NCBI GenBank assembly: GCA_964400635.1
Contig: CAYNVE010000002.1
Coordinates: forward strand, 1-41,172
DNA length: 41,172 nt
From: an uncultured Lentisphaeraceae bacterium
Lineage (GTDB): Bacteria > Verrucomicrobiota > Kiritimatiellia > RFP12 > UBA1067
Reading direction: 5' to 3'
Part shown: one piece after another, positions 34,731-41,172 of the stretch
Numbering within the stretch: position 1 is the first letter of the stretch
Layout of the letters: each line of letters starts with the position of its first letter
The notes under the pieces: model-generated
Seen by the model: only the letters and a program-made list of their open reading frames with translations
What the model was told of the DNA's origin: nothing
The model's database searches: none
Made by a program: the position numbers and the translations under genes

Positions 34731-35865
34731 GCTTTTCGCCGTCGGCGCGCACAACGCGCGCGCGAACGAGCGACTTGCGCGGCGTCGCGCGCGCGTCCTG
34801 AAGCGAGCAGGGGAGATACGCGCCCGTCCAGCCGCTCCTTTTTTCCGCGTCCTCGATGACGAGCATCACGTCGCGATTGACGAAGCGCGAGGCGAAGACG
34901 GCGCGCTTTTCGGCGGCGAGGACGGCGAGCGCGTGTGCGCGGCGATGGCGGAGGTCGTGTGGGACGGCGTGCGGGAAGGCCACCGCCTTCGTCCCAGGTC
35001 GCTCGGAGTAGGGAAAGATATGGGCGTTCGAAAACGGCAGGCGCAGGAGGAGACTCTTCGTCTCGAGGAAGTCATTCTCACTCTCGCCTGGAAAGCCCGT
35101 CATCAGGTCGCACCCAAGCCCCATGAGCGGGTTTGTCTCGATGGCCTTCTCGACGAGAGATTCTACTTCACGGACGGGGTAGGGGCGGTTCATCGCGCGC
35201 AGGATGACATTTGAGCCAGACTGGACGGGGATGTGAAGAAAGGGCGCGATGGTCTGTGGGTGCGCCTTGAAAACGTCAAGGACGCGGAGGGCTGTCGCGC
35301 CTGGTTCTAGCGAGCCGAGGCGGATGCGGCAGTCGTCCGCGAGTGAGGCGAGTGCGTCAAGGAGGTCGTCGAGGCGCTTCCCCTCGGAGGCGTAGAGCGC
35401 AAGATTGCAGCCCGTGAGAACGATCTCGTGGTAGCCCGCGTCGATGAAGCGGCGCGCGCGGTCGAGAACGTCGCTGAAGGGCGTCGAGACGGAGGAGCCG
35501 CGAAAGGTCGGCACGATGCAAAATGTGCAACGACCGCTACAGCCGTCTTGGCACTTGAGGTAGGCGCGGGCGGTGCGCGTGGGGAGGGTATCGTGGGCGT
35601 GGTCTTCTCGCGTCGTCTTGACGGCATCCTTGAGGCAACCGACGATACGAAAACGCGCCTTCGGGTTCGTCGCGCGCAACTGGGCGATGCGCTTTTCCGA
35701 GTCACGCTCGGCGCGCCGCGTCACGCTACAGCCGCGCACAACGATGAGGTCGGCTTGGCGCGCGTCGTCTGTCCATTCCCAGCCGCGCGCGAGATAGTCC
35801 GCCTCGTCGTCGAGTGCCTCGGCGCGGTTGAGGCGGCAGCCGAATGTCTCAAAGAAGACCTTCAT
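34696..35865 (-). CDS. mtaB: radical-SAM methylthiotransferase (MiaB/RimO/MtaB family; MtaB-like)
   Basis: MTTase N-domain MKVFFETFGCRLN...VVRGCSVT. Radical-SAM cluster CSGRCTFC. TRAM-like C-terminus. ATG 35865 overlaps the upstream stop (ATGA). The 3' end overlaps holA convergently by 35 nt. Confidence 0.85.
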   Translation of the reverse strand: MKVFFETFGCRLNRAEALDDEADYLARGWEWTDDARQADLIVVRGCSVTRRAERDSEKRIAQLRATNPKARFRIVGCLKDAVKTTREDHAHDTLPTRTARAYLKCQDGCSGRCTFCIVPTFRGSSVSTPFSDVLDRARRFIDAGYHEIVLTGCNLALYASEGKRLDDLLDALASLADDCRIRLGSLEPGATALRVLDVFKAHPQTIAPFLHIPVQSGSNVILRAMNRPYPVREVESLVEKAIETNPLMGLGCDLMTGFPGESENDFLETKSLLLRLPFSNAHIFPYSERPGTKAVAFPHAVPHDLRHRRAHALAVLAAEKRAVFASRFVNRDVMLVIEDAEKRSGWTGAYLPCSLQDARATPRKSLVRARVVRADGEKLIATTVGEGRA

Positions 35866-36404
35866 TCGACAGGGATGACGAAGAGAAGGACGAGATTCGT
35901 CAAATTGAAAAGCGCGTGCAGGAGCATCGGGCATCCGATGCGGTCTGTTTTTTCGTAGAGTCGGCACTGCGCGAGGCCGAAGAAGAAGAGCGCGAGAAAC
36001 GCCGCATCGGGCCAGGGCTGCGTCAGATAGTGCGCGGCGGAAAAGAGCGTGGCGGAGACGAGCGCGGCGAGGACGGTCGCGACTGTGACGAGTCGGCAGG
36101 TCGCTCGGTGCGCGGCGATTTTTTTCGTCGCCCAGATGGGGAGTTTAAAGAGGAGACCGCGAAAGAGGAGTTCTTCGAGCGCGGGCGCGAGGATGATGAT
36201 TTGTGCGACGAGAAATGCGGCACCGAGGAAGTGGCGAGGCGAGGCGAAAGCGTTCTCGAGGACGTGCGCGACGATGTGGACGTTCTGTTGGTCGGGGAGG
36301 TCGAACCCGAGCCACGCCGCGACAGTCTTCGTGAGGTAGCAGAGAGCAATTGTCGCGGCTGTGACGACGGGCCAAGCCTTGAGCGTCAAGAGAAGTGATT
36401 TCAT
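35862..36404 (-). CDS. CPBP-family (CAAX-type) intramembrane glutamic protease
   Basis: Motifs LEELLFRG, FSAAHY and HALFNL. The start is taken at ATG 36404 (MKSLLLTLK), which sits directly downstream of a promoter. The ORF-track start at 36497 would read through the promoter. Confidence 0.8.
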   Translation of the reverse strand: MKSLLLTLKAWPVVTAATIALCYLTKTVAAWLGFDLPDQQNVHIVAHVLENAFASPRHFLGAAFLVAQIIILAPALEELLFRGLLFKLPIWATKKIAAHRATCRLVTVATVLAALVSATLFSAAHYLTQPWPDAAFLALFFFGLAQCRLYEKTDRIGCPMLLHALFNLTNLVLLFVIPVE

Positions 36405-36411
36405 GCCGTTT

Positions 36412-36420
36412 ATTATATCA
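36412..36420 (-). promoter_or_regulatory. extended -10 element (TG)TGATATAAT on the minus strand; hexamer ends 8 nt before ATG 36404 (leaderless)
   Basis: The minus strand reads ctGTGATATAATaaacggcATG. Confidence 0.5.
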
Positions 36421-36445
36421 CAGTCGCGCACCCCTCTTTTCGGGT

Positions 36446-36472
36446 CCTTTATGGTCTTTATGTTCTTTATGG
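36446..36472. repeat. three tandem 9-bp repeats (C/T)CTTTATG(G/T) in the divergent intergenic region
   Basis: cctttatgg tctttatgt tctttatgg. Confidence 0.85.
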
Positions 36473-36484
36473 TTAAAAGACGAT

Positions 36485-36503
36485 AGATGCCTGTCAAGAT
36501 GCC
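36485..36503. promoter_or_regulatory. direct repeat AGATGCC-N5-AGATGCC abutting the -35 of the Tad-like operon promoter (candidate operator)
   Basis: atAGATGCCtgtcaAGATGCCTTTACA. The centre-to-centre distance is 12 bp. Confidence 0.4.
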
Positions 36504-36533
36504 TTTACACGAACCCCTTAAAATTGATACAAT
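36504..36533 (+). promoter_or_regulatory. promoter of the Tad-like cluster: -35 TTTACA, 18-nt spacer, extended -10 TGATACAAT
   Basis: TTTACAcgaaccccttaaaatTGATACAAT. This leaves an untranslated leader of about 55-60 nt before the peptidase start. Confidence 0.45.
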
Positions 36534-36594
36534 ATGCGTTAAAGGCGAAAGGAAGATGCTGAATTCGACAGTCAGAATTTGACAACTTGATCAT

Positions 36595-37143
36595 GTGCAA
36601 ATGACCTCCTGGCATATTTCCTTCATCGCGCTTCCTTTCCTCTTCGCGTTTGCGATCTACGGCGAGGTGCTGAAGCGGCGCATTCCAAATGTTTTGACGC
36701 TCGCCGCCATGGCGTTTGGCCTCGGTGCCGCGCTGATTGAGAATGGGCTTCCGGGCCTCAAGGAGTCTGCGCTCGGCCTTTTGATCGGCGGCGGTGTCTT
36801 TCTGCCGTTTTGTCTCTTCGGGCTCGTGGGTGGCGGCGACATGAAATTGATGGCCGCGACGGGCGCGATCATCGGCTATCCGCTCGTCTTGCGCGCACTC
36901 ACCGATACGTGCATCGCAGGCGGGCTTCTCGCCGTCGGCATCGCCGCGTGGAACGGGACGCTCTTAAGCGCATTCGCGTCGGCCTTTCGTATCATCTTCG
37001 GCGCGAAGAGAAAACGCGACGAGAAGAAGACTGAGGCCTCGGCGGAGGATGCGGGCGACGCGCGGCATCCCCTGCCCGTCATGATTCCCTACGGCCTCGC
37101 CATCGCGGCGGGAACGCTCTACACCATCTTCACGGGGGCGTAA
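36595..37143 (+). CDS. A24-family prepilin peptidase (CpaA/TadV type)
   Basis: YGEVLKRRIPN (first active-site region) and LVGGGDMKLMAATGAIIGYP (GxGD second active site). About 180 aa and polytopic. The start is GTG 36595 or ATG 36601, and no obvious SD is present. Confidence 0.85.
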   Translation: MQMTSWHISFIALPFLFAFAIYGEVLKRRIPNVLTLAAMAFGLGAALIENGLPGLKESALGLLIGGGVFLPFCLFGLVGGGDMKLMAATGAIIGYPLVLRALTDTCIAGGLLAVGIAAWNGTLLSAFASAFRIIFGAKRKRDEKKTEASAEDAGDARHPLPVMIPYGLAIAAGTLYTIFTGA

Positions 37144-37147
37144 GACG

Positions 37148-39754
37148 ATGTTCTTCTTTCGGCGCGAGAGCAGGCTCAAGAAGACGGCCGCACGGCGCAT
37201 GGCTTCGCCGCGCGCTTCCGCCTACCTTGAGTTCGCGCTCGTTCTGCCGATTGTCGTCATGGTCATTTCCGCAATGATCGAGTTCACGTCGTTTTGGGAC
37301 GCGAAAATTATGGCGAACCACGCGGCGTGGACGGTGGGGCGCATTGCGACGGTGCGTGCGGGTGCGCGCGAGGCGAAGAAGTCGTCGACATCTCTCATCG
37401 GCAAGAAGCCCGCGAACGTGAAGGAGCTCTTAAACCCCGACACGCAGATTGACGGCATGTATGTTTCGACGGCGCTTCTCATGTCCACGTGCTCAATGGG
37501 CTCGATGCACGGCAGTTCGGCGGATCTCGCGAAGGACTGGGTCGAGAAGTGGATCGGCCAGGGCATGGCCGCCTTAAGAAACCTCATTGAGAACCAGATT
37601 AAGACGAAACTGACGGAGCTCGCGAAAAGTCTCGCGAACCTCTTTCCGCTCGACCTTGGCGATAACACAATCGGGAAGTTCGTGACGGAGATCATGAACA
37701 AGATCATCGAGAATGTGACGAAGCCGATTGCGGAAAAGCTCGCGTCGTTTATCGAAAGTCTCATCCCCGCGGGGGCCTACACGGGCTTCGAGGATCTCCT
37801 CAACAACAGCCGCGTCCTGCGTCAGGTCGTCTACGCGGCGGATCGCGTCGCGACATACGACGTCATCACGGTGAAAGAGCGCGATGACAAGTCGATCCCC
37901 GCCTTCTCGCGTGCGTCGCTCTACGGCGGCTCGCCGCTCGATTTGCCTGCGACATATGACACGAAATCAACCTACGACGACTGGATGGTGAAGACCTACT
38001 CGGGCTGGCCGCCGAACAACCAGTCTCAGAAGATGATTGATGTCACAATCAAGTGGCCGTTTGAGCGCGCGTGGATGTTCCCCGTGCTCGCGTCAGCCGC
38101 CTCGTCGTCCGACCCAGGCGATGTGCCCGTTGCGGTCGGCCGCGCCCTCTTCTACCCGCAACCGAATATCAAGAATGCGAACCTCTACAGCGACGGCGCG
38201 GAGGCGTTTGATCCTGGCACAACGAACTCGTATGTGAAGGCGATCGAAGAGCTGAAGAAGTCTTATAACGGTTTCTTGAATATCGTCCTCCTTTCCTACA
38301 AGTACCGCCTTCTCGAAGAGACGGTTGGGCCTTATGACAGCGACACGGGCAGCTACTCTTACAAGGGCATCGGGCGCGGCATTTCGGGCGAGGCTGAGGA
38401 GTCCGCCTACTACGCGCTCGACGGGCTTGTCCTCTGGATGGAGCGCGCGCCGGATGACACGAGCCAGAAGTCGAACTGGCAGAGCAAGTCGCCGCCCGCC
38501 GACTACAAGAAGTGCTTCATGGAATTAACGGGCACGTCTGACGAGACCTGCAAGTTTTGGAACGGCGTCGTGTTTCATCCGTGGACAATTAAGACGGCCG
38601 CGCTCGAGAATCTCGAGAACCGTGCCTACAAGGATAAGGAGTGGTTCTTCTGGGGCGACGACACGCATCGCCACCTGCGCGTCAAGCATGCGACGCCGAG
38701 CGATCTCTTCGCGGCGTGGAAGGGCAGCTTCGGTGGTCAGCCGCCGTGGTATGCGTTTCTGAATGGTGGCACGATCGACGGCGCGTCGAGCGAAATCAAC
38801 GGCTCGTTCACGGCGGGGAATCTCGTGATGAACGTCTCGGAGGACGACTTTAAGAGCGCCGTCTCGCGTTATGTCGGCGGTTCGGCGGCATCCTGTCAAG
38901 ATTGGCGCACCTTCGTCGCCTCGGCAAATGTTTTCGCGCCGAATGCGAACGCGATGGTCGCGTTCTCCTCGTCGTCGGCATCGACCTTGAAGACGCGCGA
39001 AACGGCCGCGCTCAAGAATGTGTTTTCGGACGCGGCGACGACGCAGGAGAAGATTCGCCAACTCGAGCGCGCGAGCCGCGACGAGTTAGCCTCCGCAATT
39101 GGCGGGGGCAGCGAGGAGGCGGACTACAGCAGCATGGGCTTCTTCGACTACGGCGATGATGACGCGGACATCGCCAAGGATCCTGAGAAGGCTGTCGAGA
39201 AAATGAAGGAGAAACTCGAGACGCTCAAGAAGACGATTATCAATGACGTCATTGCCATCGACGAGGCGGAGCAGGCCGCACGCGATGCCTATTCGAAGCT
39301 TCAGGAACAGATCAAGACGACGACGAATGAACGCCGCGAGAAGATCCTCGAATGGGCCGCGAAGACGGCCGCCGCGTTGCAGCGCGCGGGTGTGGCGGAC
39401 GCGACCGCCGTCGCGCAGATCTTGCGCACGGCGTTCCCCGTGAAGGATGACTTTGAGACGGGGGTTGCCGCCTTCGAGTCGGCGGCCACGGCCTACGCCT
39501 CTGCGCTTGAGACGCTCTACAAGGCGGAGCAGCAACTCGCGAAGGATCTCGGGCTCAAGTCATCGGGTAGCAAGGACAAGGAGAAGGGCGATGCTGATCC
39601 GAGCGGCGAGGGCGTGCCCGAGGACGACCCCTATCGTCCGTCGGAAAGCGGCTCAGACAGCGGCTCGGATGACGACGGGTGCGGGGATTTCTGGAAGCGG
39701 AAGGCGGGCGGCCACGGTTGGACGCAAGATCCGAGCGGGAAGGAGGATGTCTAA
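37148..39754 (+). CDS. 868-aa protein with TadE-type (Flp-pseudopilin) N-terminus and a large uncharacterised body with an acidic tail
   Basis: The N-terminus RRMASPRASAYLEFALVLPIVVMVISAMIEFTSFW matches the TadE class signature (xEFALVLPxxxxxxxxxxEF). The rest shows no motif I recognise. A coiled-coil-like segment covers roughly aa 690-810. The tail is SESGSDSGSDDDGCGDFW. Confidence 0.8.
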   Translation: MFFFRRESRLKKTAARRMASPRASAYLEFALVLPIVVMVISAMIEFTSFWDAKIMANHAAWTVGRIATVRAGAREAKKSSTSLIGKKPANVKELLNPDTQIDGMYVSTALLMSTCSMGSMHGSSADLAKDWVEKWIGQGMAALRNLIENQIKTKLTELAKSLANLFPLDLGDNTIGKFVTEIMNKIIENVTKPIAEKLASFIESLIPAGAYTGFEDLLNNSRVLRQVVYAADRVATYDVITVKERDDKSIPAFSRASLYGGSPLDLPATYDTKSTYDDWMVKTYSGWPPNNQSQKMIDVTIKWPFERAWMFPVLASAASSSDPGDVPVAVGRALFYPQPNIKNANLYSDGAEAFDPGTTNSYVKAIEELKKSYNGFLNIVLLSYKYRLLEETVGPYDSDTGSYSYKGIGRGISGEAEESAYYALDGLVLWMERAPDDTSQKSNWQSKSPPADYKKCFMELTGTSDETCKFWNGVVFHPWTIKTAALENLENRAYKDKEWFFWGDDTHRHLRVKHATPSDLFAAWKGSFGGQPPWYAFLNGGTIDGASSEINGSFTAGNLVMNVSEDDFKSAVSRYVGGSAASCQDWRTFVASANVFAPNANAMVAFSSSSASTLKTRETAALKNVFSDAATTQEKIRQLERASRDELASAIGGGSEEADYSSMGFFDYGDDDADIAKDPEKAVEKMKEKLETLKKTIINDVIAIDEAEQAARDAYSKLQEQIKTTTNERREKILEWAAKTAAALQRAGVADATAVAQILRTAFPVKDDFETGVAAFESAATAYASALETLYKAEQQLAKDLGLKSSGSKDKEKGDADPSGEGVPEDDPYRPSESGSDSGSDDDGCGDFWKRKAGGHGWTQDPSGKEDV

Positions 39755-40878
39755 TGACAAGTCGGCTCTTCGGCTTCCTTCGTTCGTCGCGTGCGCGCCT
39801 CGCGGACGATCGCGGCCACGTGGGTGTCTTGATGGCGCTCGTCATTTTCGTCGTCATCGGCTCGCTCACGATGACATGGAACACGGCGCAACTTTCGAAG
39901 GAGAAGATGCGCCTTCAGAACGCGGCTGACTCGGCGGCGCTCGGCTTCTGCGTCTGGCAGGCGCGCGGCATGAACACGGTGCAGAACCTGAACGACGAGA
40001 TGTACGCCGCGCTCTCGATCGCGAAGAAGTTGCTCGTCGTCGCCGTGCCCGCCGAGACGGCCGCGCAGGTTCTCGAAAAGATGGGCTCTATACCTTACAT
40101 CGGCATCGTCTGCAAAATTGCCGCGCAGGCGTTCCACATCATCGCGGCGATCTCGGGCGGCGTCTCGGGGCTTCTCGCAAACCGAATCTGCCCTTACTTC
40201 TTAAGACCGCTCGGCTATTTCTACGCCTACGGCGCGACGGTCTTCGCCTATTGGGGCGCGCAACAACTTGCGGCGAAAAATCGAGCCGATCCGCTCGGCA
40301 ACGTGAGCATCAACTTAGGACCTTTCGGCAACCTCGGCGTTTACGCGCTCGGCATCGCCTTCCCCATCATCGACACGGTGAAGCTGCCCCTCGCGACGGA
40401 GTCCAAGAGCGAGGAGCCGTGGAAGAACGACACGGATTATTCGTCGCTCTTTCAGGAAAAAAGCGGCGGCATCTACAAGACGATTCACAAGATTTGCGGC
40501 ACGGGCGGCAAATGGGAGGTGAAGCCCTGGGTTTCGAAGCGTGACAACAAGACGGGCAAGAATGCGCTGCCGGGCCCAAGCATTTGGATCGCGCACAAGT
40601 ATTATACGCACATTGAGACGATGCCGCTGGAGGCGTGGTCGTCGAAGACATCGAAGACGATTGACCAGTGGCCGATGATGGCGATTGCCGCAGCGCAGTG
40701 CGTGACGGGTGATGTCGTCGCGCACTCCGTCACGCCGAAGAATGCGAAGAACAACCAGCGCCCCGCCGGCTTCGGCACGGGCGCGACCGCGAAGCTCATC
40801 CCCGTCACGACGGCCTTTGAGTCGCTGACGACGAACAGCGTGGCCAATGGAATTTTGAAGAGGATCATTTACCACTAA
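39754..40878 (+). CDS. TadG-type (Tad/Flp pilus-assembly N-terminal domain) protein, 374 aa, no vWA motifs seen
   Basis: DDRGHVGVLMALVIFVVIGSLTMTWNTAQLSKEKMRLQNAADSAALGFCVW fits the TadG/Tad N-terminal pattern (G.v.vl.al....l.......d.......r..LQ.AaDaAALA). TAATG overlap with the upstream gene. Confidence 0.75.
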   Translation: MTSRLFGFLRSSRARLADDRGHVGVLMALVIFVVIGSLTMTWNTAQLSKEKMRLQNAADSAALGFCVWQARGMNTVQNLNDEMYAALSIAKKLLVVAVPAETAAQVLEKMGSIPYIGIVCKIAAQAFHIIAAISGGVSGLLANRICPYFLRPLGYFYAYGATVFAYWGAQQLAAKNRADPLGNVSINLGPFGNLGVYALGIAFPIIDTVKLPLATESKSEEPWKNDTDYSSLFQEKSGGIYKTIHKICGTGGKWEVKPWVSKRDNKTGKNALPGPSIWIAHKYYTHIETMPLEAWSSKTSKTIDQWPMMAIAAAQCVTGDVVAHSVTPKNAKNNQRPAGFGTGATAKLIPVTTAFESLTTNSVANGILKRIIYH

Positions 40879-41172
40879 TGAACACACGCGAAGCGAGATT
40901 GAAAACTCGTCTCATGCGTCGGCTTCAGTCAACGCGGGGGACGGCGTATCTTGAATTCGCCTTCGTGATGCCGCTCGTCGTCATGACGATGTGCTTCGCC
41001 GTTGACTTTACGCGCCACCTCTATGTCGAGCAACAGGTCGAGATTGCGTCGCGCGCGCTCTGCGACGTCGAAAGCCATCTCATTCCTGGCAAGCGGAAGG
41101 GATGCCCTGGGCGGCCTGCGAAGATCGTCGTTCGGAACTACCTCGCCGAGTCGCTGAAGAACGAGGGGCTTC
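40878..41172 (+). CDS. TadE-type pseudopilin-like protein, 5' partial (runs off the window)
   Basis: My own translation from ATG 40878 gives MNTREARLKTRLMRRLQSTRGTAYLEFAFVMPLVVMTMCFAVDFTRHLYVEQQVEIASRAL... This contains a canonical G/xxxxEF prepilin site plus a hydrophobic helix. The frame stays open to the end of the window. The ORF is absent from the supplied track. TAATG overlap with the upstream gene. Confidence 0.75.
   Translation, partial: MNTREARLKTRLMRRLQSTRGTAYLEFAFVMPLVVMTMCFAVDFTRHLYVEQQVEIASRALCDVESHLIPGKRKGCPGRPAKIVVRNYLAESLKNEGL

Follow-up and report, generated by a model that had tools for sequence, protein, structure and literature searches.

Why does a tad operon carry a protein that bears the signature of TadE and yet is 868 amino acids (aa) long, and what might so large a minor pilin do? 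The question is raised by a 41,172-nucleotide (nt) stretch of contig CAYNVE010000002.1 (GCA_964400635.1) from an uncultured Lentisphaeraceae bacterium, the whole of which is called the window here. An open reading frame (ORF) that starts with ATG and occupies positions 37148..39754 on the + strand encodes this giant TadE-like protein, to which all amino acid numbers in the text refer; its mature form is predicted to be 92.3 kDa with an isoelectric point of 4.9. A sequence-only reading of the window had described it as a TadE-signature prepilin of 4-5 times the size of known TadE/TadF proteins. Both statements hold, because the TadE family is matched above its cut-off and the annotated TadE proteins of a canonical tad locus, that of a Novosphingobium plasmid (L035), have 157 and 208 aa. 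In what follows, we report that the giant gene is real, conserved, and part of the operon for the Tad (tight-adherence) pilus in Kiritimatiellota of the gut and rumen, and we argue that its product is probably a processed, modular minor pilin that sits at the tip of a Tad (type IVc) pilus.

Proteins of this size form a family of their own. A word-indexed search returned 81 homologues of 792-995 aa, which align from end to end down to 24% identity, and an exhaustive profile search against 1.84 billion cluster representatives yielded no more than 160 proteins at E <= 1e-3. Of the latter, some 55 are full length, so that relatives down to 22% identity keep a size of 750-1000 aa; the remainder are fragments or match just the N-terminal helix or a helical repeat. 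In a scan of one genome per species, the giant gene was found in 27 independent loci of metagenome-assembled genomes (MAGs), nearly all of them labelled Kiritimatiellae/Kiritimatiellia, “Lentisphaerae”, or Verrucomicrobia UBA1727, and mostly from rumen or gut samples. Two further labels among these loci, Alistipes and Eggerthellaceae, are probably binning errors. An independent ENA contig (L003), which reaches further downstream than the window, encodes an essentially identical 868-aa protein with few residue differences. A literature search on Tad pili in Kiritimatiellota found no paper.

Read from its N-terminus, the giant is divided as follows.

37148..37216, + strand: leader peptide (aa 1-23), 35% Lys+Arg, ending in S-P-R-A, with predicted cleavage between Ala23 and Ser24.
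37217..37366, + strand: alpha1 helix (mature aa 24-73), with the hydrophobic alpha1N part, Glu28 at +5, and then the WDAKIMANHAAWTVGRIA motif.
37367..37855, + strand: expanded alpha-beta-loop region (aa 74-236), with amphipathic helices at 124-165, 175-205, and 209-236.
37856..38167, + strand: predicted beta-sheet head (aa 237-340), with invariant GWPPN and WPFExxWxFP motifs.
38168..39550, + strand: C-terminal body (aa 341-801), a part of small helices and loops (341-610, the least conserved) followed by long helices.
39551..39754, + strand: acidic linker (aa 802-848), C-terminal motif SGSDDDxxGDFW...GGHGW (aa 836-858), and stop codon.

The assignment to the TadE class rests on the N-terminus. 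In Pfam and NCBIfam scans of the protein, TadE (PF07811) alone reaches the threshold, matching aa 24-60 with 28.4 bits (E = 1.8e-6) against a gathering score of 22.9 bits, and no second family appears; the same family is matched by 43 of 50 members of the giant family. The protein has a single hydrophobic segment (aa 22-50), and Glu28 at +5 makes Ala23 the residue at -1, which confirms the TadE-type class III signal that had been proposed. A hydrophilic leader ending in Gly or Ala, some 20 hydrophobic residues, and, as a rule, Glu at +5 are also what defines a type IV prepilin (PMC10191384), and the giant has all three. In 79 homologues, Ser20, Arg22, and Glu28 are nearly invariant, and Glu is at +5 in all sequences except one (78 of 79). 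Apart from its size, the giant belongs to the TadE-signature family by its Pfam match and its operon.

The processing site had been singled out as unusual for not following Gly, and it had been asked whether orthologues keep the Ala. Not all of them do: the closest orthologues (72-78% identity) carry Gly, and the 79 homologues have Ala in 46 cases, Gly in 33, and no other residue. Within related operons, Gly is the sole residue at -1 in the Flp pilins and the TadG-like protein; the giant, a second TadE-like protein, and a 67-aa pilin carry either Ala or Gly there, their motif being S-x-R-[AG]/S-V-Y-L-E-[FY]. One annotated TadE of the Novosphingobium locus reads DDLA/ATTAEF, that is, it too has Ala at -1. 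In the literature, the leader “invariably ends with ... Gly or Ala” (PMC10191384), and the consensus of the peptidase CpaA is G/A-X4-F/E (PMC12607857). Because of the mixture in the family, the Ala in a canonical TadE, and this Gly-or-Ala rule, the Ala of the giant appears real but ordinary, and we have dropped it as a special feature.

The shape of the N-terminal part was taken from AlphaFold2, run on the 81-sequence alignment, which gave a full-length model with a mean predicted local distance difference test (pLDDT) of 76.7 and a predicted template modelling score of 0.59; a second run on aa 1-348 gave the same N-terminal topology at pLDDT 70.5. The alpha1 helix is modelled at 21-73, contains the invariant residues P34, S41, and E45, and is the best-conserved segment, with a mean column conservation of 0.73. 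A short helix at 103-112 overlaps an invariant segment, LLMSTCxMG (aa 108-118; M112, S113, T114, and G118 invariant). The amphipathic helices of aa 124-236 have pLDDT 50-88 and a column conservation of 0.40. The beta-sheet, modelled at moderate confidence with a column conservation of 0.54, has predicted strands at 240-245, 264-269, 281-287, 296-304, and 328-335 and the invariant residues P267, W287, P288, W303, P304, W309, P312, and G331; its strand 264-269 is present in the full-length model and absent from the truncated one.

This model changes an earlier picture in which a helix-rich insertion of about 230 aa splits a TadE fold that closes with beta-strands at aa 295-315. A helical region is indeed there, but it follows alpha1 and precedes the sheet, which is the place of the alpha-beta-loop, and so does not split a fold; from alpha1 to the first strand there are only about 165 aa, with the helices at aa 124-236. 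Of the proposed closing strands, 296-304 is a strand, while 310-314 is helical and a further strand follows at 328-335. Since shorter relatives of 456-599 aa (P0128, P0133) carry the helical loop region as well, it is part of the pilin module of the wider family and not special to the giants. As a separate observation, proteins of 1000-2000 aa are matched repeatedly but weakly (E 1e-8 to 1e-4) by the region at aa ~125-236 (37520-37855); one of them has a phage minor-tail (tape-measure-type) domain, and several hit Baculo_PEP_C-like repeats. In our reading, they share a style of amphipathic helical repeat and not a homology of function.

Behind the pilin module comes a body that no search could place. 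Its long helices are predicted at 611-651, 679-747, and 769-801 with pLDDT above 90, as is most of aa 370-650 and 680-800; these helices bear out the coiled-coil-like stretch that had been seen at aa ~690-810. Column conservation is 0.33 for the body and 0.38 for the long helices, and falls to 0.09-0.25 at about aa 521-580. The few conserved residues, among them Y453, W502, R729, and E794, are structural ones with an aromatic or charged side chain. An enrichment of the unassigned region in Trp, Tyr, and Gly is present but mild, with 3.3, 5.2, and 8.5% in aa 341-610 against 2.3, 3.5, and 6.9% in the whole protein. Among 50 family members scanned with Pfam, only TadE recurs, with no family for the body and no catalytic family or motif; the other library hits (LYRM2-like, CBM46, TelA, PhaR) were single, below the cut-off, and in helical regions, and were set aside. 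A profile search of the PDB gave only coiled-coil noise (E >= 0.002), and Foldseek found no match at E <= 1e-3 for the full model in the PDB and BFVD. The body had been expected to lose its interest if it fell into a known domain family; neither the remote-homology nor the structural searches put it in one, and it stands as a confidently predicted module of ~460 aa without a detectable relative outside the giant family.

The tail had been described as a disordered acidic one. It is acidic (30% Asp+Glu) and in part has pLDDT below 50 (aa 809-824 and 837-840), but it is not merely disordered, as it ends in a conserved motif. The family-wide form of this motif is SGSDxDxxGDxW...GGW, with an invariant W858 and a nearly invariant pair, G839 and D841, and short strands are predicted at 849-851 and 858-860.

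The variation between relatives follows these boundaries. Distant operons keep the gene order and the ~340-aa pilin module, and in them the C-terminal part is shorter or different, the first minor pilin having 760, 599, or 456 aa; the 456-aa homologue is from a complete genome (CP119760.1). In one locus (L037, 2475-8047), two giant paralogues of 865 and 870 aa lie in tandem with an extra Flp gene between them, and their identity is 66-87% in the pilin module, 41-47% with insertions and deletions in the mid-body, and 80% in the last 55 residues. From these comparisons, the giant reads as a modular protein with a conserved pilin module and tail and a variable body. A modular, exposed tip subunit is indicated because the pilin module is conserved and the body variable, because distant operons retain the module and change the C-terminal part, and because the L037 paralogues differ mainly in the mid-body.

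The setting of the gene points the same way as its signature. Three neighbours in the window belong to the same operon.

36595..37143, + strand: A24 prepilin peptidase of the short CpaA/TadV type (Pfam Peptidase_A24, E = 2.2e-13), with the likely true start at the ATG at 36601.
39754..40878, + strand: TadG-like minor pilin-like protein of 374 aa, with N-terminus DDRG/HVGVLMAL and Gly at -1 (Pfam Tad, PF13400, E = 1.2e-6).
40878..41172, + strand, cut by the end of the window: second TadE-like minor pilin with STRG/TAYLEF (Pfam TadE, E = 4.1e-7), 261 aa long in L003.

In L003, the order continues beyond the window: A24 peptidase (180 aa), giant (868), TadG-like protein (374), TadE-like protein (261), a membrane protein of unknown type (293), RcpC/CpaB, secretin, TadA/CpaF ATPase, TadB, and TadC. 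When the operon proteins were searched by tblastn against the fetched loci, the same order was found in more than 30. In nearly all related loci, the giant is immediately preceded by the peptidase gene, and in every locus that extends far enough it is followed by the TadG-like gene. In the window, the stop codon of the peptidase is 4 nt ahead of the ATG of the giant; the final A of the giant's TAA doubles as the first letter of the TadG-like gene's ATG (TAATG), a GGAGG precedes this ATG by 7 nt, and the TadG-like/TadE-like junction has the same TAATG overlap. These overlaps indicate co-translation. A neighbouring ORF with the canonical TRG/TAYLEF form had been noted; it exists but is not adjacent, as it starts at 40878, two genes downstream, and the adjacent gene is the TadG-like one. 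By profile-profile comparison, the giant matches the second TadE-like family with a probability of 97% (E = 5e-11), against 9% for the TadG-like family (hhalign). The TadG-like protein has no Glu at +5 in any locus, and its C-terminus, GILKRIIYH, has a strand-like look.

In nearly all loci outside the window's clade, two Flp genes and a gene for a 67-aa pilin-like protein lie upstream of the peptidase; the window's clade is without them at this place (36498-36594 and upstream). The small pilin-like protein (61-70 aa; L001 8429-8632 and most related loci) has the site S-E-R-[AG]/S-V-Y-L-E-Y and a strictly conserved C-terminus, LIKLPIF, and by analogy may be the counterpart of the “adapter” pilins KilK/KilO of Myxococcus tips.

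How the giant would work as a tip pilin can be put as a sequence of steps. The A24 peptidase would remove the 23-residue leader at the cytoplasmic face of the inner membrane, and the giant, the TadG-like protein, and the 261-aa TadE-like protein would bundle their alpha1 helices into an initiation complex. Among the pseudopilins of type II secretion, the apical subunit (GspK) has no Glu at +5 and the subunits below it keep theirs. The pattern found here, with Glu at +5 in the giant and in the small TadE-like protein and none in the TadG-like protein, would fit an analogous arrangement, and the TadG-like protein is probably the apical subunit because it has no Glu at +5. The initiation complex would then prime the polymerisation of Flp and come to sit at the pilus tip. 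Within it, the pilin module (aa 24-340) would hold the giant in the fibre, and the ~460-aa body (aa 341-801) would project past the tip as a working surface, most likely for adhesion or ligand recognition, with its long helices as a stalk and its variable part (aa ~400-650) exposed. The C-terminal motif, on its acidic flexible linker, would fold back onto the pilin module or a partner minor pilin, in parallel with the C-terminal beta-strand addition of CpaL/TadG.

Large minor pilins with such a layout are already on record. CpaL, the TadG orthologue of Caulobacter (~600 aa), consists of a pilin-like module and a vWA domain and, by prediction, makes up a trimer at the tip together with CpaJ and CpaK (PMC12607857), while its extreme C-terminal strand is needed for pilus assembly and its middle ~470 residues are partly dispensable (PMC13533445). 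Like CpaL/TadG of Caulobacter crescentus and Aggregatibacter actinomycetemcomitans, the giant has a prepilin-like module, a G/A-X4-E/F site, a large middle part (~470 vs ~460 aa), and a conserved C-terminus; it likewise shares its tad locus with two further minor pilins, and CpaL is predicted at the tip with its module outward (PMC12607857, PMC13533445). The modelled order of the giant would fit that of CpaL, with a sheet at 240-335, the body at 341-801, and a C-terminal motif that includes W858 and the low-confidence strands 849-851 and 858-860. Unlike CpaL/TadG, however, the giant carries PF07811 and Glu at +5 instead of PF13400, and a separate TadG-like protein, to whose family it has no sequence similarity (hhalign, as above), adjoins it. 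Its module is also without the vWA/MIDAS domain of CpaL, none being found by Pfam in the 50 members, by the PDB profile search, or by Foldseek, and has no detectable Pfam or PDB relative.

In Myxococcus, KilL, KilM, and the large KilN make up tip trimers that can replace one another, and models of the same kind exist for TadE/F/G of other bacteria (PMC12075869). Going by the description of the Tip complexes of the Myxococcus xanthus Kil pilus, the likeness lies in three adjacent minor-pilin genes, including a large one whose product has long helices and additional domains of unknown fold (PMC12075869); their variable modules, too, are proposed to be exposed at the end of the pilus, and the several alternative tips of Myxococcus resemble the tandem giants of L037. 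The difference is that the large Kil subunit is described as a TadG homologue and that the Kil pilus works with an apparatus like the type III secretion system in predation, a context that is missing here. Canonical TadE/TadF proteins (PF07811), such as those of the Novosphingobium locus, are small (about 150-210 aa) and consist of alpha1 and a compact beta head. They share with the giant the class III signal, the Glu at +5 in a hydrophobic alpha1, and their place beside an A24 peptidase in a tad operon, but the giant is 4 to 5.5 times longer, with the helical expansion of the alpha-beta-loop and a C-terminal extension of ~530 aa. The same principle of a grafted domain in a tip complex is seen in PilB (vWA) and PilC (lectin) of S. 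sanguinis and in the alpha-domain of GspK (PMC10191384, PMC13533445); these belong to other filament classes (type IVa pili, type II secretion), their grafted modules are of known folds, and GspK is without Glu at +5.

We therefore file the giant as a protein that works like the modular tip pilins of the CpaL/KilN type but is not a member of the TadG family, because its profile probability is 97% to the small TadE-like family against 9% to the TadG-like family. It had been suggested that a pseudopilin with a large adhesin-like or effector body would be an unusual component of the tip. The tip position and the adhesin-like body remain the best reading, but the concept is not unusual, given the precedents of CpaL/TadG and KilN (PMC12607857, PMC13533445, PMC12075869); modular tip pilins are already known, and what is new is the class of subunit (TadE, with Glu at +5) and the module.

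Several points weigh against placing the giant at the tip. Its processing, export, and tip location are alike inferred. No Flp gene is found in the 41-kb window or in the sister contigs L003 and L004; the major pilin of the window's lineage must be encoded elsewhere, or the operon is orphaned. The helix 21-73 and the strands 240-335 expected of a pilin are modelled, but the pilin head has pLDDT of only 43-88, and Foldseek with the N-terminal module found no solved pilin and no match at E <= 1e-3 in the PDB. The C-terminal strands are of low confidence as well (pLDDT about 56-60); that strand 264-269 is formed only in the full-length model may hint at their pairing partner. The large subunit of known systems is TadG/PilK-like and has no Glu at +5, whereas the giant keeps it. 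Finally, the mature giant has 92 kDa, and the three-subunit complex would have ~160 kDa, to be compared with the sole solved Tad secretin, which narrows to a lumen of 62 A (PMC10499894). Passage would require an elongated giant, and the long helices of the model suggest that it is elongated.

The same figures can be turned to another use of the protein. According to this alternative, which we judge unlikely, the giant would be an assembly or alignment component that is anchored in the inner membrane by alpha1 and stays outside the extruded fibre, with helices of ~10 nm spanning the periplasm to RcpC or the secretin, where the C-terminal motif would dock. Such a role would suit both a mature mass of 92 kDa facing a lumen of 62 A and predicted helices of up to 69 residues. 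It would also suit the machinery, which is non-canonical in that related operons have no TadZ/CpaE homologue and have an uncharacterised membrane protein of ~290 aa, and one review lists TadG as a protein of the cytoplasmic-membrane sub-complex and not as a pilin (PMC10191384, Table 1). On the contrary, fibre subunits typically have a strictly conserved cleavage motif and Glu at +5, as the giant family does, and the fast variation of the mid-body, together with the tandem paralogues, fits an exposed, ligand-facing surface better; TadG/CpaL and KilLMN are themselves placed at the tip (PMC12607857, PMC13533445, PMC12075869).

It is very improbable that the pilin module instead brings a toxin, a pore-former, or an enzyme to the tip for use against cells or polymers. 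Tad tips do mediate contact-dependent killing in Myxococcus (PMC12075869), and on a Moraxella plasmid, genes for a TadE-family protein and an RHS toxin come after a tad locus. The top Foldseek matches of the N-terminal module are alpha-pore-forming toxins (AhlC, ClyA, YaxB), which are not significant and were rejected as noise (E 0.25-5, TM-scores around 0.15). Against such a cargo, the 50 family members scanned have no catalytic family or motif, the conserved residues of the body (Y453, W502, R729, E794) look structural, and no immunity-like gene is conserved beside the giant. Least of all is the long ORF an artefact in which a frameshift or misassembly has joined a small TadE gene to one downstream, a notion that has only its unusual length for a TadE-signature protein in its favour and that we reject with near certainty in view of the 81 homologues of 792-995 aa, the ~55 full-length representatives of 750-1000 aa (aligning down to 22-24% identity), the 27 MAG loci, and the essentially identical protein of the independent contig.

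Taking the giant as a tip pilin, its wider interest is easily stated. Tad pili drive adhesion, surface sensing, and contact-dependent killing, and recent work has their function set by minor-pilin tip complexes with variable modules. The giant family extends the idea of the tip module to a little-studied phylum of the gut and rumen and shows that a large module need not sit on a TadG-type subunit. If the body is an adhesive or sensing surface, it would point to what these uncultured polysaccharide degraders attach to. The C-terminal motif would be a second, independent case for the proposed rule that a C-terminal strand licenses filament assembly. Going one step further, and with more doubt than confidence, we speculate that Kiritimatiellota and their relatives have a distinct sub-type of Tad system with four linked features: a large tip module that a TadE-class subunit (Glu at +5) bears in place of the TadG-class one; a new fold for this module, fast-evolving on one face, with alternative tips arising by gene duplication (perhaps for host or dietary glycans or particles in the gut); a conserved acidic C-terminal “clasp” that licenses assembly; and a peptidase that cuts the prepilins with a Glu/Asp pair in place of Asp/Asp.

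The last of these features concerns the A24 peptidase, which has no methyltransferase domain. At the position of the first catalytic Asp it has Glu23 (YGEVLKRRIPN, against WDIRYRRLPN in the canonical Novosphingobium enzyme), while GGGD is intact. The canonical peptidase for this comparison was reached via the ATPase, a tblastn search of plasmids with the A24 peptidase having given no hit. All 33 locus orthologues (L001-L034) and all of the best 120 database homologues share this Glu and keep the Asp of GGGD. Judged by sequence, the enzyme would be a natural Glu variant of the GxGD-type aspartyl proteases, and a clade with Glu for Asp bears on the chemistry of GxGD-type intramembrane proteases.

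Some smaller observations on the surroundings of the giant should be mentioned. A gene for a CPBP/Rce1-like intramembrane protease lies at 35862-36497 on the - strand, divergent from the tad operon, and has weak matches to the myxosortase family. As a processor of the C-terminus of the giant it was considered and rejected, since the giant has no C-terminal transmembrane sorting domain, and it is probably unrelated to the operon because it occurs only in the window and the near-identical L003, and not in the other related loci. The membrane protein of ~290 aa has an N-terminal membrane anchor and no Pfam match and is encoded in every operon (L003 14495-15376; L001 9144-10004), after the small TadE-like gene or, in UBA1727, before the giant. 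The TadA/CpaF ATPases also vary at their N-termini: those of distant operons have an FHA domain there (L031 9794-11503; L032 14425-16080), and that of the window's clade (540 aa) has an extension of ~170 aa before the T2SSE domain. The Moraxella bovis plasmid NZ_CP087831.1 (L036, 12848-18418) carries a tad locus followed by genes for a 333-aa “TadE family protein” and a 1516-aa RHS repeat toxin, and may represent a Tad system that is linked to a polymorphic toxin.

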